This document shows, piece after piece, positions 139-60,521 of a stretch of DNA of 64,000 nucleotides (within the stretch, counting starts at the first letter, position 1; each line of letters opens with the position of its first letter). The position numbers and the translations under genes are program-made. Below the pieces are notes generated by a model that had not been told where the DNA came from, searched no databases, and saw only the letters and a program-made list of their open reading frames with translations. Origin of the DNA: an uncultured Chloroflexia bacterium. Lineage in GTDB: Bacteria; Chloroflexota; Limnocylindria; QHBO01. The DNA lies in the NCBI GenBank assembly GCA_963716585.1, contig CAVQTN010000002.1, positions 28,480 to 92,479 on the forward strand. The letters run 5' to 3'.

Positions 139-226
139 TGGCGGAGGGGGTGGGATTCGAACCCACGGGCCGTCTCCGACCGCCGCTTTTCAAGAGCGGT
201 GCATTCGTCCACTCTGCCACCCCTCC
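139..226 (-). tRNA. tRNA-Ser (anticodon UGA), class II tRNA with long variable arm, CCA encoded
   Basis: The reverse complement folds as GGAGGGG acceptor stem, D-arm GCAGAGTGGACGAATGC, anticodon stem-loop CCGCU-CUUGAAA-AGCGG (anticodon UGA), long variable arm, T-arm GTGGG-TTCGAAT-CCCAC, discriminator G, CCA. It is very similar to E. coli tRNA-Ser(UGA). It lies immediately downstream of serS. Confidence 0.9.
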
Positions 227-54852: not shown

Positions 54853-55638
54853 TCAGGAGTTTGACTGCCCGGATCCGGCGGTGACGCCCATGAACTCGAG
54901 CATCTGGCCCCAGGCATCGGCCGATGCGTCGGCGAACGCCTCCGCCTTGCGGTCGAAGAACGAGTGTGGCGCCCCGTCGTACACCACGAACCGATGCTCG
55001 ACGCCCGCCTCGTTCAGTGCTCGGTCGAAGGCATCGCGCGCATCGCCCGTGATGGACCGGTCGGCGCCGCCGAACAGGCCGAGCACCGGGCAGCTGAATC
55101 GTCGCGCTTCGTCGGCGGGCGCCGGCAGACCGCTCCGATGCTCGCCAACCGGCGGGCCGTAAAAACCGATCACGCCGTCGAGGCCCAGGCTGTTCGTCGC
55201 CTGCAGGAAGCTGATCCGCCCACCGACGCAGAAGCCGACGCTGTACAGCCGCTCAGGCTGCCCACCGTCGGGGGAGCGGAGGAACTCGGCGGCTGCGGCG
55301 ACGTCGGCGTTGACGCCATCAAGGCTCAGCTGCACGACGTGCGGGGCGTACTCGAAATCCGCGCCCCGCTTGCCGGTCCCGGCGCTCCTCGAATACAGGT
55401 CGAAGGTGATGGCGTGCACGCCGGCCTGGGCGAAGCGCAGCGCCAGCTCCTCGTAGTACGGGTGGAGGCCACGGATGTCGGGGATGATCACGATGCCAGC
55501 GCCGCTGGGCTGCTCGGCGCGCGCCGCGAAGGCGGCGACCCGGGTACCGTCGGCAGAGGTCAGGGTCAGGTCGCGCGAGTCGAGGGCCGAGCCGCGGATG
55601 GGTGGTAGAGGGGGATGATCATCTGCTTCGAAACACAT
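54853..55638 (-). CDS. dienelactone hydrolase family protein
   Basis: 261 aa alpha/beta hydrolase. Nucleophile elbow GFCVGG, and C-terminal catalytic HSF. Confidence 0.8.
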   Translation of the reverse strand: MCFEADDHPPLPPIRGSALDSRDLTLTSADGTRVAAFAARAEQPSGAGIVIIPDIRGLHPYYEELALRFAQAGVHAITFDLYSRSAGTGKRGADFEYAPHVVQLSLDGVNADVAAAAEFLRSPDGGQPERLYSVGFCVGGRISFLQATNSLGLDGVIGFYGPPVGEHRSGLPAPADEARRFSCPVLGLFGGADRSITGDARDAFDRALNEAGVEHRFVVYDGAPHSFFDRKAEAFADASADAWGQMLEFMGVTAGSGQSNS

Positions 55639-55647
55639 GGACCGATG

Positions 55648-56463
55648 TTACGCGTGCACCGCGCCAGAGAGGCGCGAAACCACCTCGCCGACCGCGGGCG
55701 CGCCGCCGTCACGCATCGCGGCAACCAGCGCCGAGCCCACCACGATGCCGTCGGCCACTCCCCGGAGCTCGCGCGCCTGATCGGGAGTCGAGATGCCGAA
55801 GCCGGCGGCAACCGGCAGACGTCCGGCGGCTGCCACGGCGACGCGCCGCAGCAACGCCGCGGCTCCCTCGGCCAGCCGCTCCCGCGCGCCCGTCACGCCG
55901 AGCAGCGGAACGACGTACAGGAAGCCGGTCGAGGCCTCGATCGCCGCCTCCATGCGCGGCGCAGCCGTGTTCGGTGCGACGAGGAAGGTGAGCGCCAGGC
56001 CACGGTCGGCCGCCGAGCGCTCGAAGCCCGGCATCTCGCCGGCAGGCAGGTCCGGGACGATGAGGCCGTCGCAGCCGGCCTCGGCCAGCCTTCGGAGGGC
56101 GGTCTCGGCGCCCACCGCGAGCAGCGGGTTGAGGTAGGTCATCGCCAGGATGGGCTGCTCCAGGCCCCGCGAACGGAGCGCTGCCACCATCCGCAACGCC
56201 GAGTCGAACCCGCCACCGTGCTCGAGCGCCACGCGGCCCGCCCCGGCGATCACCGGGCCGTCGGCCAGCGGGTCGCTGAATGGGACGCCCACCTCCAGGA
56301 TGTCCGCTCCGCAGCGCAGCGCAGCCTCGCCCGCATCGGTCCCGGCCTCATCGGTCGGAAAGCCGGCCATGACGTACGCGACAAAGGCTGATCGGCCGGC
56401 ATCGGTCGCCGACGCAAACGCGGCGCGCACCCGCGCGGCGCCATCGGGAGCGGACGAGCTCAT
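55648..56463 (-). CDS. trpA: tryptophan synthase alpha chain
   Basis: 271 aa. [17 protein letters not shown] and [10 protein letters not shown] motifs. The start overlaps the upstream trpCFB stop. Confidence 0.92.
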
Positions 56464-59132
56464 GCGGAGGCGGCAGCCAGCGCGGAGGTCAGCGCGCCTT
56501 CGACAATCGCGAGGTCTTTGTCGCCTCGGCCGGACAGGTTCACGAGCACCGCGGCCGAAGCGGTCAGCGAGGGCAGCAGGCGCAGCGCCGCCGCTACCGC
56601 GTGGGCAGATTCCAGCGCCGGCACGATCCCGCAGCGACGGGAGAGCCAGTGCAGCGCCTCGAGTGCCTCGTCGTCGGTGGCGCGTTCAACGTCGAGGCGC
56701 CCGGACGCGGCCAGCGCCGAGAGCTGCGGACCCACGCCCGGATAGTCGAGACCCGCGGACAGGGAGTGCGGCTCGACGACCTGACCGTCCGCCGTCTGGG
56801 TGAGCATCGTGAAGGCGCCATGCAGCACGCCGGGCCGGCCCAAACCCAGCGAGGCGGCGTTGTCGCCGAGCGCGTCGCCCCGGCCGCCGGCCTCGACCCC
56901 GATCAGCCGCACCGACGTGTCCAGGAACGGTCGGAACAGCCCGATTGCGTTCGATCCCCCGCCGACGCACGCCATGGCCACATCGGGGAGACGACCCAAC
57001 CGGTCCAGCATCTGCGCTCGCGCCTCGCGCCCGATGACCGACTGGAGCTCGGCCACCATGTCCGGGTACGGATGCGGACCCGCCGCCGAGCCGAGGACAT
57101 AGAAGGTCGTCTCGACGTTCGCCACCCAGTCGCGCAGCGCCTCGTTCAGCGCATCGCGCAGCGTGCCGTTGCCAGTCTCGACCGGGCGCACGGTAGCGCC
57201 AAGCAGGTGCATGCGCTGGACGTTCGGCGCCTGGCGCTCGATGTCGGTGGTGCCCATGTACACCACGCACTCCAGGCCGAGCAGCGCGCAGGCGGTCGCC
57301 GTCGCCACGCCGTGCTGGCCGGCGCCGGTCTCGGCAATCACCCGCGGCTTGCCCATGCGCTCCGCCAGCAGCGTCTGCCCGATGGCGTTGTTGATCTTGT
57401 GGGCGCCGGTGTGCGCCAGGTCCTCGCGCTTGAGGAACACGCGCTGGCCCACGCCGCCACGCTCGGCGAGCGCGCCGCGCGGAATCTCGAAGATGGGCGT
57501 GGGGCGACCGATGAAATCACGATGCAGACGCCGAAGTTCGGCGGTGTACGCCGGGTCGCGTTTGGCCGCCGCCCAGGCGGCGGCCAGCTCGGCGAGCGCC
57601 GGGATGAGCGTCTCGGGGACGTAGCGTCCCCCGAAGCGGCCGAAGCGGCCCCTGGCGTCGACCCGATCCGCGCCGGTCGGGTCGCGCCGCGCATTGCGGG
57701 CGAAGGTCCTGATGCGTCGCACGTCCGCTTCGCCGTTGCGCTCGAGGCCGCCACTGGCGTCGACCAGCGCGGGGCGGGCAGTGGCGACTGCGCGAGCAAC
57801 GTTCGCCGGCGTCAGGCCCCCCGCCAGGCCGATCGGCAAGATGCGGTTGAGGCGTCTGACAAGCTGCAGGTCCGGGGTGCGTCCCGATCCCCCGCCCTCG
57901 GCATTGGTCGCGCCCTCGAGCAGGAGGCGCGTCGCTCCGGCCGCGTACCACGCTTCGGCGAGGCGCAGCGTGTGGCGCACTCCGTTGGCTCCGTGCAGGA
58001 CGCCGATCAGTTCGTCGTGGTCCACGGCCGCAAGCCAGGCCGGCGGCTCGTCGAATCCCGAAAGCTGCACGTTGCGAATGCCGCTTGAGCCAACCCCGGC
58101 CGCGACCTCTTCGCGCGTCGGCCGATGGAAGACGAGAACCGGCTTCGGCCCGCCGTTGAGGTCGTTGGCCAACGCGCCGGCGAGCTCCAGCGAGATGCTC
58201 CGACGGCGCCCCGAAGCCACGACGAAACCGGCGAAGTCCGCGCCGGCCGCGACCGCGGCCCGGACTCCCGCCTCCGATCGTGTGCCACACACCTTCACCA
58301 ACGTGCGCTTGGGCGGCGACGGCACGACAACCGGCTCGCGTTGCGGCGCAGCGTCCACCAGGTGGCGGGCCGCGGCCGCCGGATCGCCGGACGAGAGCAG
58401 ACTCGTCCCGACCAGCACGCCGTGAGCGCCCGCCTCGGCCGCTCGGTCAAGGTCGGCTGAGCTCGCCAGGCCACTTTCCGCGATGAGCGTGGCACCGGAC
58501 AATCGCGCCTGCGCGACGAGGCGCATGGCACGCGGCACATCCGTCTCGAGCGTCGCCAGGTCGCGGGCGTTGACGCCGATCAGGGTCGCGTCCGCTCGCA
58601 AGGCGCGCTCCAGCTCGGCTTCGTCGTGCACCTCGACCAGCGCGTCCAGGCCGGCTTCGCCGGTGGCTTCGAGCAGCTCGCGCAGCCGGTTACCCCGAAG
58701 GGCCCGGACGATGAGCAGGACCGCATCCGCCCCGAGGGCTCGCGCCTGGAAGACCTGGTAGCGGCTCGTCGTGAAGTCCTTGCGCAGGACCGGCAGGCCG
58801 ATGCCGGACGCCGCCCGCAGGTCCTCGTCACTGCCGCCGAAGCGCGTCGGCTCGGTGAGGATCGAGAGGGCGGCCGCACCGGCGCCGGCGTACGCGCGCG
58901 CCAGCTCGACCACATCGCCGATCTCTTCGAAGCTGCCCGCCGAGGGCGAGGCGCGCTTGATCTCGGCGACGAGACCCAGCCGGTCGCCGTGGCGCAGCGC
59001 TGCCTCGAAGCGGCGGGCTGGGGGCCGGGCCTCCACCTCGCGCTGCAGCTCGCGCATCGGCACGATCCGGGCATCGTGACGCGCCCGGGCACGCGAAGCA
59101 GCCAGGAGCTCGTGGAGCACGCTGCGGCTCAT
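56460..59132 (-). CDS. trifunctional fusion: indole-3-glycerol-phosphate synthase (TrpC), phosphoribosylanthranilate isomerase (TrpF) and tryptophan synthase beta (TrpB)
   Basis: A single 890-aa ORF. Residues 1-265 are IGPS ([27 protein letters not shown]). Residues 270-470 are PRAI (LVKVCGT..., [18 protein letters not shown]). Residues 480-890 are TrpB ([45 protein letters not shown]). No Met or stop at the junctions. Confidence 0.85.
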
Positions 59133-60169
59133 GGGCGGATCGCCGCTGCGGCGGTGACCACCTCGGCGGCCCTGCCCGAATCGATGGAGGTCGCGGCCAT
59201 CTCGACGCCTTCGCCGACGTCGTTGGCGCGCCCGGCAGCGAACAGCGCGGCGCCGGCGTTGAGCAGGGTGACGTCGCGGGCCGGACCCGGCTCGCCGCCG
59301 AGCACCGACATCGCGATCGCCGCATTGAGCTGTGCATCGCCACCGGCCAGGACAAGGGCCGGCGCGCGGCGCAGACCCAGCGTTGCCGCATCGATCTCGA
59401 GCTCCGCGATCACCCGGCCCTCGATGAGCAGTGCCCGGTTCGGCCCGTTGAGTGTCAGCTCGTCGAGGCCCTCTGGCGAGTGGATGACCAGTGCCCGTTC
59501 GGTCGGCAGGCGCGCCAAGGCCCCGGCAATGAGCGGCAGCAGACGCTCATCGGCCACGCCCAGGAGCTGCCGACGTACCCCGGCCGGCGACGAGATCGGT
59601 CCGAGCAGGTTGAAGACGGTGCGCATCGGCAGCTCGCGGCGAATCGGCATGGCGTGTTTCAGCGCCGGATGGTAGGAGGGCGCGAACATGAAGCCGAAGC
59701 ACGTCTCGCGAATGGACCGCGCGACCGCCTCGGGCCCGGGATCGAGGGCGATGCCGAGTGCCTCGACGAGGTCTGCGGATCCGCATCGGCTGGTGATCGC
59801 GCGGTTCCCGTGCTTGGCCACCGGCACGCCGGCGCCGGCCACAACGAAGGCGGCCAGCGTCGAGATGTTGAACGTGCCACTCCCGTCTGCGCCGGTGCCA
59901 CACAGGTCCACCGCGTCATCGGGCGCCTCGACCTTGACGGCGCGGGCGCGCATCACCCGGGCGAATGCCGCCAGCTCCTCCGGTGTCTCGCCGCGCACGC
60001 GCAGCATGGCCAGCAGCGCGGCGACCTGCGTCGCCGGCGCCCTGCCGTCCATCAGCTCTTCCATGGCGGCCTCGGCCAGCGGCGCAGGCATCGCGGCGCC
60101 GTTGGCGACCAGCTCCACCGCGGCGGCCACCGCGGGCCGATGCTCCTGCGTCGCTTGCGTGCCTGCCAT
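59129..60169 (-). CDS. trpD: anthranilate phosphoribosyltransferase
   Basis: 346 aa. [39 protein letters not shown]-binding region. First gene of the trp cluster, with a GAGGA SD. Confidence 0.92.
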
Positions 60170-60185
60170 GGTTCATCCTCGGGTA

Positions 60186-60470
60186 CCGCAACGCCTCCAT
60201 CCATACAAAGGGACGGAGGCGTTCTTCCGCGGTGCCACCCTGGTTCGAGTCCGTTGCTGCGGGCTCGCGCTCGGTTCGACCGCTGCTAACGGGGGTCGGG
60301 TCCGTCGCCGCCTACTGCCCGCCGTCGGCGGGATTTCGGAGCGAGGCTCGCGGGTCCCACGTGGTCCGCATCGTGCACGCCGGCTCCCACGCTCCCGGCT
60401 CGCTGGTGTGGCTCGTTGCAGCGGACGACTCGTCCCGGTCAACGCCTGTCGTGTTCAATTGAGCGCGCAT
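60186..60470 (-). promoter_or_regulatory. candidate Trp-specific T-box riboswitch leader of the trpD-trpCFB-trpA operon
   Basis: The minus strand contains the canonical T-box 14-mer AGGGUGGCACCGCG (60228..60241) about 60 nt upstream of the trpD ATG, preceded by a long stem-III-like hairpin. It is followed by a 13-bp hairpin AACGCCUCCGUCC-CUUUGUAU-GGAUGGAGGCGUU (60190..60223) carrying anti-SD/SD-like CCUCC/GGAGG. The UGGC bulge sequence matches discriminator G of tRNA-Trp. Two UGG triplets sit in candidate specifier-loop contexts. A possible promoter is TTGACG-17-CATGAT (60492..60469). Confidence 0.55.
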
Positions 60471-60521
60471 CATGGGCCGATGGGCTGCGCCCGTCAACCG
60501 GCCGCGCCGCGGAGGTTGCCG

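Follow-up and report, generated by a model that had tools for sequence, protein, structure and literature searches.

The leader in front of trpD

Is the long leader in front of this trpD gene a T-box riboswitch and, if so, which tRNA would it read and how would binding be passed on to the genes downstream? The window analysed here is a stretch of 64,000 nucleotides from an uncultured Chloroflexota bacterium, and all features of the locus lie on its minus strand (-), so that leader coordinates run downwards. The original prediction, made from the letters of the sequence, had placed a Trp-type T-box in a gap of 350 nt upstream of a trpD-trpCFB-trpA operon. The gap between the stop codon of a rhomboid-protease gene (60524-60522) and the trpD ATG (60169) measures 352 nt, and the gene order is borne out by Pfam matches. 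The operon (55648-60169) consists of trpD (59129-60169; Glycos_transf_3), a trpC-trpF-trpB fusion in one 890-aa ORF (56460-59132; IGPS+PRAI+PALP) and trpA (55648-56463; Trp_syntA), with overlapping stop and start codons. When we searched the window for trpE and trpG, neither was found.

The ribosome-binding site of trpD (60167-60180) comprises the Shine-Dalgarno (SD) sequence GAGGA (60180-60176), a 6-nt spacer and the ATG (60169-60167). An in-frame TGA at 60175-60173 makes a trpD start upstream of this ATG impossible, and the TrpD N-terminus read from ATG 60169 aligns with homologues. At the other end of the gap lies a promoter-like site (60469-60497) with TTGACG (60497-60492), a 17-nt spacer and CATGAT (60474-60469). 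It is the sole sigma-70-like match in 20 kb, where 0.7 would be expected, and relatives carry a TTGACC-17-TAGGAT/TAGCAT promoter-like site at the equivalent position. A transcript from this candidate promoter (~60497-60469) would start about 16 nt 5' of Stem I and have a leader of roughly 290 nt.

The leader aligns with the T-box family over its full length

The window contains the 14-mer AGGGTGGCACCGCG a single time, at 60241-60228, where it matches the conserved 14-nt T-box sequence AGGGUGGNACCGCG exactly. It has the correct orientation and its 3' end lies 58 nt from the trpD ATG, close to the 60 nt first estimated. A chance occurrence had been thought very unlikely and indeed no exact match was seen in 100 dinucleotide-preserving shuffles, the expectation with one mismatch allowed being 0.14. 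In an E-value-level scan, the Rfam T-box model RF00230 aligned end to end (model positions 1-219) onto 60451-60206 with a score of 50.9 bits, corresponding to E = 2.6e-10 in a 501-nt region and E = 3.4e-8 in the whole window. The original prediction had named a scan with this model as its check. The full-length alignment and its E value support it, but the score, which carries a 24-bit composition bias at 72% GC, stays under the Rfam gathering cut-off of 93 bits, an operational threshold and no structural feature. Because 50.9 bits is less than this cut-off, a default Rfam scan misses the element: run on the window at the gathering score, it reported only a tRNA and no T-box. The relatives tested likewise fell below the gathering score (19 of 19). 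The minimum free energy (MFE) of the whole leader gave z = -0.59, which is uninformative because such GC-rich sequence folds promiscuously. From the conserved sequence, the alignment and the covariation described below, we consider the trpD leader to be a Trp T-box riboswitch of "Candidatus Limnocylindria" (Chloroflexota), with a probability of about 0.9.

The element is shared and covaries among relatives

Judged from its TrpD relatives, the window belongs to the Chloroflexota class "Candidatus Limnocylindria". We examined 52 genome loci and 6 metagenome loci from relatives, and about 45 leaders from related "Ca. Limnocylindria" genomes have all T-box elements in common, with compensatory changes in Stems I to III as well as in the hairpin and the IIA/B pseudoknot. 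Covariation was assessed on 38 leaders from Limnocylindria genomes and metagenomes (alignment A3; MAFFT plus explicit pair counts). Pairing in the canonical ON-state helices amounts to 96.7% in this alignment and drops to 34-47% if the 3' partners are shifted by 1-3 columns. Both-sided changes occur at nine pairs compared with 3.5 ± 1.2 in shuffles, and none of 500 shuffles reached this number. The window leader is ~92% identical to that of L001 at aligned positions, whereas the third codon positions of trpD (at conserved residues) are 68% identical, so that the leader as a whole must be under constraint.

As had been proposed for the window, the leaders of relatives precede trp genes and begin an operon with trpE or trpD. 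In context A the T-box is followed by trpE-trpG-trpD; in context B, which is the layout of the window, a rhomboid gene, the promoter and the T-box are followed by trpD; context C is arranged as B but has the core variant AGUGUGGCACC, in which the T-box core reads AGUGUGG in place of AGGGUGG (for example L004:2895-2955).

Anatomy of the leader

Stem I (60345-60446) is covered in full by the RF00230 alignment, which takes in the K-turn base, the specifier loop, the AG bulge and the distal loop; the stem with its UGG-bearing loop can thus be modelled as the original prediction had expected, although the UGG sits 1 nt off the register of the basal helix. The basal helix (within 60345-60446) holds a K-turn/GA motif, GGC-GUU-GA-C ... 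C-GA-GCC. The AG bulge AGCGA lies at 60404-60400 and the distal loop GAGCGUGGGAG at 60394-60384, closed by the distal helix GCCGG/CCGGC. Basal, middle and distal helices are 88-100% paired in the 38 leaders, with compensatory changes in the middle helix, and the K-turn, AG bulge and distal elements are invariant or covarying among relatives.

Stem II (60305-60344), aligned together with its GAA/AGUA motifs, has a lower helix UCGCUCC/GGCGGCGA with GAA...AGUA and an apical hairpin CCCGCC-GAC-GGCGGG. Its lower helix is 97.8% paired, and its apical helix shows both-sided compensatory changes in 10-12 sequences per pair. The Stem IIA/B pseudoknot and F-box follow at 60277-60304, where the alignment places Stem IIA (CGG/CCG) with the F-box CCGUUA (60292-60287). 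The IIA loop CGACC (60298-60294) pairs with GGUCG (60281-60277) as the pseudoknot; the partners are CGACC/GGUCG in the window and covary in relatives as GAGCC/GGCUC, GGACC/GGUCC, CGACCC/GGGUCG and GGCC/GGCC. RNAalifold also proposed long-range pairing of the IIA region with the T-box, which we treated as spurious. The hairpin that had been called Stem III-like is Stem III itself (60266-60247; GAGCCCG ... CGGACUC), aligned as such, with compensatory changes at 5 of 6 pairs and 96% of cells paired.

The alternative structures come last. In the ON state the discriminator (60209-60241) would form from the T-box sequence AGGGUGGCACCGCG at 60241-60228 and a 3' strand at 60217-60209 through the antiterminator helices AGGG/CCCU and GCGGA/UCCGU (dG -11.3 kcal/mol), aligned as AGGG-(UGGCACC)-GCGGA...UCCGU-CCCU. 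Its 7-nt bulge UGGCACC begins with the UGGC (60237-60234) that would pair with the tRNA 3' end 5'-GCCA-3'. Antiterminator helix A2 is 100% paired in the 38 leaders and a G-U pair becomes A-U in five of them. In the OFF state a 13-bp hairpin (60190-60223; dG -24.5 kcal/mol) forms from the arms AACGCCUCCGUCC (60223-60211) and GGAUGGAGGCGUU (60202-60190), in which the CCUCC and GGAGG first noted are indeed found. It is 97.9% paired across the 38 leaders, with C-G to A-U covariation. Antiterminator and OFF hairpin are mutually exclusive because the 5' arm of the hairpin overlaps the 3' strand of the antiterminator. In the MFE fold the OFF helix of the window can be extended to 22 bp (60240-60181) via ACCGCG/UGCGGU and GGGU/ACCC, and then stops at 60181, one nucleotide short of the SD; relatives conserve this extension only in part, with partners that vary. 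In-frame AUGs in the hairpin loop (MDGG.../MEAL...) were judged to be due to chance, as they lie within a conserved arm and their frames differ between loci.

Transcription or translation as the read-out

The step from structure to gene expression is where the window is most ambiguous. Its tail after the hairpin, UUGCGGUACCC, has 3 T in 12 nt and is among the poorest of the family; neither the terminator rule nor the TBDB poly-U rule finds a U-tract after the window hairpin, in agreement with what had been noted from the letters. The arrangement that defines the transcriptional subclass, a terminator hairpin with a U-tract immediately after it, is thus not the one seen here, and the TBDB rule is passed by only 9 of 40 relatives. 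Taken as a family, the 12-nt tails hold 5.7 T (48%, as against a background of 14%), and an A-rich GAAGAA lies 5' of the hairpin. Transcriptional T-boxes need a long Stem I with an elbow-binding motif, most translational ones do without it, and most actinobacterial translational T-boxes have a truncated Stem I (PMC7583486). The window leader has a long Stem I in which both AG bulge and distal loop are present.

The long Stem I with its elbow platform, the GAAGAA 5' of the hairpin and the T-rich tails of the family lead us to favour transcription attenuation, by a modest preference, at a terminator that would be suboptimal because its tail is U-poor. For the same reason, a U-poor tail in the window itself, the read-out is one that we infer. 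By itself the hairpin cannot strongly block expression and so shut the operon off, since four species (L008, L013, L010 and L016) have lost Stems I-III and keep a 12-13 bp hairpin.

The original prediction had instead suggested a switch that sequesters the SD, with GGAGG as the masked element. This part did not hold: the GGAGG of the 3' arm is no ribosome-binding site, being too distant from any usable start, and the SD GAGGA lies 9 nt past the hairpin and outside it. In every relative the start codon is found 16-31 nt beyond the hairpin with an SD of its own. We estimated SD accessibility by partition-function folding, with the antiterminator forced for the ON state. In the window it was 0.60 OFF and 0.45 ON, and over 38 leaders 0.55 OFF and 0.54 ON (Wilcoxon p = 0.67), so that it appears independent of the switch. 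The pattern of the translational subclass, an SD held in the sequestrator and freed in the ON state, is therefore not what the leader presents. A translational T-box could still work in a broader sense, if the OFF hairpin or its 22-bp extension (to 60181) blocked the 30S subunit and the ON state freed the ribosome-binding site. Such a model would agree with a hairpin that has no U-tract, with a hairpin-to-start distance that is short throughout the family and with an extended helix ending next to the SD, as well as with the number of canonical terminators in this genome, which at 22 in 60 kb hardly exceeds the ~13.5 expected by chance. It seems unlikely to us, as the SD and AUG belong to no conserved helix, the predicted accessibility is equal in both states, the extension is only semi-conserved and varies in its partners, and the architecture of Stem I is of the transcriptional type.

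There is also a slim prospect that Limnocylindria Trp T-boxes act through a third kind of read-out, distinct from both SD sequestration and classical U-tract termination. The hairpin might impose a stop that needs no U-tract or is assisted by a factor (NusG or Rho); alternatively, a long OFF helix, made of the 5' half of the T-box and the tail, might abut and occlude the ribosome standby region. If this were true, the hairpin kept after deletion of Stems I-III would have a second, tRNA-independent role.

Tryptophan specificity and an unusual specifier loop

The original prediction had looked for the specifier among UGG triplets in upstream hairpin loops. In the window the 3' side of the specifier loop reads CACG-UGG-GA (60355-60363), with the specifier codon UGG (Trp) at 60359-60357 followed by a purine, G. 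A UGG is conserved here in the ~45 related leaders and stands at the specifier site in 37 of 38 aligned relatives, nearly all of which present the classical S-turn, codon and purine as GAA-UGG-A, immediately before the basal helix of Stem I. Bacterial tRNA-Trp carries the discriminator base G73. The antiterminator bulge is always UGGC or, in four leaders (L012, L031, L043 and the truncated L013), UGGU, and both fit G73 since either fourth base can pair with G; the discriminator G deduced from UGGC in the window agrees with this. A tRNA-Trp gene (anticodon CCA, G73) was sought in the window and the 52 loci and none was found. The genes under the leaders are trpE-trpG-trpD, trpD, or a trpS fragment followed by trpD. 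The last case is L006, with a 99-aa ORF between T-box and trpD (L006:733-1032, plus strand) that matches the C-terminal ~70 residues of tryptophan-tRNA ligase (NF008922, E = 4e-11). Judged by this match it appears to be a trpS remnant, and it hints at an earlier T-box-trpS arrangement. Specificity for Trp is well supported by the UGG specifier, the UGGC/UGGU bulge and the trpE, trpD and trpS-remnant gene contexts.

The specifier loop of the window is nevertheless non-canonical. It has AGUC (C at 60427) and CACG where relatives have AGUA and GAA, so that both halves of the S-turn, an element that is conserved in T-boxes though not universal, deviate in this copy. Departures of the window from conserved columns cluster at 60364-60358 and 60427, and a search among the 38 aligned and 6 metagenome leaders showed this variant to be shared by none. 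One explanation would be that the window T-box is decaying, its altered specifier loop and weakened terminator leading to poor sensing of tRNA-Trp and near-constitutive expression of the operon. This would account for deviations that are unique and clustered in the specifier loop and S-turn, for a tail that is the most U-poor (tied with L003), and it would fit related species in which Stem II, Stems I-III or the entire leader have disappeared. We think decay improbable. The UGG, K-turn, distal platform, Stem II, pseudoknot, F-box, Stem III and T-box sequence are all intact in the window, as are both alternative helices; the upper Stem I helix beside the loop is a perfect 6 bp; and conservation of the leader greatly exceeds that of synonymous sites.

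Relative to the basal helix, the UGG of the window is shifted by 1 nt, and the reading anchored on the model is GGG. Both the Rfam alignment and MAFFT put GGG-A at the site where relatives have UGG-A, which could mean that the specifier is GGG (Gly) in basal-helix register followed by the conserved purine A. Bacterial tRNA-Gly has U73, and the bulge of the window remains the UGGC that fits G73. When the loop is anchored on the upper helix, the offset of the UGG equals that of the closest relative L002 (CGGAC-GAAC-UGG-A in L002, CGGAC-CACG-UGG-GA in the window). As UGG is found in all relatives and the operon is one for tryptophan synthesis, we find a specificity for glycine very unlikely and read the window specifier, from its letters, as UGG followed by an inserted purine. 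That the motif arose by chance or belongs to another RNA (a leader-peptide attenuator or a TRAP site) would be in line with the score under the Rfam threshold, but this reading has a negligible chance and is effectively refuted by the E value of the full-length alignment and the covariation in ~45 leaders, and on direct reading of the sequence we saw neither tandem Trp codons nor a GAG/UAG repeat array.

Proposed mechanism

Starting from the sequence and structural elements, their covariation, the Trp codon and the gene context that we observe, we infer tRNA binding, a response to charging and the read-out by homology to characterised T-boxes. The 5' leader of trpD-trpCFB-trpA would then probably function as a Trp-specific T-box with attenuation at the hairpin. 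Uncharged tRNA-Trp would pair through its CCA anticodon with the specifier UGG, while its elbow would stack onto the distal platform of Stem I formed by the AG bulge and distal loop. Its free 3' end (G73-C-C-A) would pair with the UGGC of the antiterminator bulge, and this contact would stabilise the weak antiterminator (-11 kcal/mol) over the 13-bp hairpin (-24.5 kcal/mol), allowing expression of the operon. Charged tRNA-Trp could not make the 3'-end contact, the hairpin would form and expression would fall. The most likely consequence of hairpin formation would be premature termination or pausing of transcription at the hairpin and not masking of the SD.

Relation to known T-boxes and attenuators

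Trp T-boxes in front of tryptophan biosynthesis genes have long been known in Firmicutes. Within Chloroflexi they have been described upstream of trpE and a trpB-like gene in Dehalococcoides (Wels et al. 2008, PMC2494555), and T-boxes of Chloroflexi are listed in PMC3766115. The window leader shares with the Firmicutes and Dehalococcoides elements Stem I, Stem II, the IIA/B pseudoknot with F-box, Stem III and the choice between antiterminator and hairpin, as well as the UGG specifier, the G73-fitting base and the site upstream of trp genes. It differs from them in its host, a member of the Limnocylindria with ~70% GC, and in a score well below the Rfam cut-off. Unlike known trp T-boxes, the leader in the sublineage of the window precedes trpD and not trpE, with trpE and trpG elsewhere, its hairpin is followed by a poor U-tract, and the specifier loop of the window copy departs from the canonical form.

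The translational ileS T-boxes of actinobacteria (Sherwood et al. 2015), as they are described in PMC7583486, resemble the window in their high-GC host, in a hairpin without U-tract, in the GGAGG of the 3' arm and in the discriminator core. In that description their SD lies inside the sequestrator and their Stem I is usually truncated and has no elbow-binding motif, whereas the window has its SD outside the hairpin, a long Stem I and its specifier in an internal loop. The rtpA-ycbK (anti-TRAP) T-box of Bacillus subtilis senses the charging of tRNA-Trp (Sarsero et al. 2000, as cited in PMC2494555). In the account given there it reads uncharged tRNA-Trp through a UGG specifier and raises tryptophan synthesis, as the window leader would; unlike the latter, it controls a regulator (anti-TRAP) in place of biosynthetic genes and has a canonical terminator. 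The Trp leader-peptide attenuator of Proteobacteria (RF00513) also lets tRNA-Trp charging control a trp operon via alternative leader hairpins. There, charging is sensed by ribosome stalling on tandem Trp codons, while the window leader has no such leader peptide and its RNA would bind the tRNA directly.

A high-GC clade of T-boxes in an abundant soil and freshwater class of Chloroflexota thus lies well below the Rfam gathering score, and because its scores fall under the cut-off standard annotation misses Limnocylindria T-boxes; a clade-specific covariance model would recover them. The family also provides a natural series of changes in a T-box, which is found before trpE, trpD or a trpS remnant, has lost Stem II or Stems I-III in some species and is absent altogether once. 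For the mechanism, the window leader is a compact test case for read-out in high-GC bacteria without obvious U-tract terminators. None of these points of detection, evolution or mechanism alters the understanding of T-boxes. The window leader is of local interest as an element that escapes the Rfam cut-off, stands before trpD after the operon was split, has an odd specifier loop and an ambiguous read-out.

Variation among related leaders and other features of the window

Several further observations concern the relatives. Where the core is altered in group C, 12 leaders have U-U in place of a G-C pair of the antiterminator. The terminator hairpin, by contrast, compensates that C-to-U change (C-G to U-A), which suggests that the OFF helix is under the stronger constraint. 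The group C leaders L005, L012, L015, L020 and L043 have no Stem II, and their Stem I is followed by an IIA/F-box-like element; the same direct order is known from glyQS-type T-boxes. Where Stems I-III are deleted, the promoter runs straight into the T-box core or hairpin; L008 (2330-2470) and L013 have the same deletion, and those of L010 and L016 are different. L011 has no leader at all, its rhomboid stop codon lying directly against the start of trpD. Five leaders from genomes of ~70% GC, those of L017 (~700-760), L026, L030, L033 and L037, carry an AT-rich palindrome of 30-40 nt (GTATAT..CCGG..ATATAC) inserted at the Stem II apex. An extra covarying hairpin (GGCCGGCGCAUCGG...CCCGUGCG) between F-box and Stem III (A3 columns 217-254; for example L033:860-900) is present in most group A and some group B leaders and absent from the window, L001, L002, L006, L021, L055 and group C. 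The metagenome-assembled genome CAVZPD01 has two T-box-trpE-trpG-trpD loci (L028 and L031) on different contigs, one with the bulge UGGC and the other with UGGU, which could reflect duplication or strain heterogeneity.

In the window itself, a tRNA-Ser(TGA) gene lies at 139-226 (minus strand), and the proteobacterial sRNA sX4 gives a weak match that overlaps it (33 bits, cut-off 70) and is probably due to chance. A search with the exact TrpD of the window found no independent assembly. ORFs of 887-890 aa, the length of the trpC-trpF-trpB fusion, come after trpD in L001-L004, L009 and L017, and with lengths equal to that of the window ORF the triple fusion of trpC (IGPS), trpF (PRAI) and trpB (PALP) is likely to be clade-wide. 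A dienelactone-hydrolase-family gene (54853-55638, minus strand) starts 10 nt past trpA in the same orientation and may share a transcript with the trp genes.
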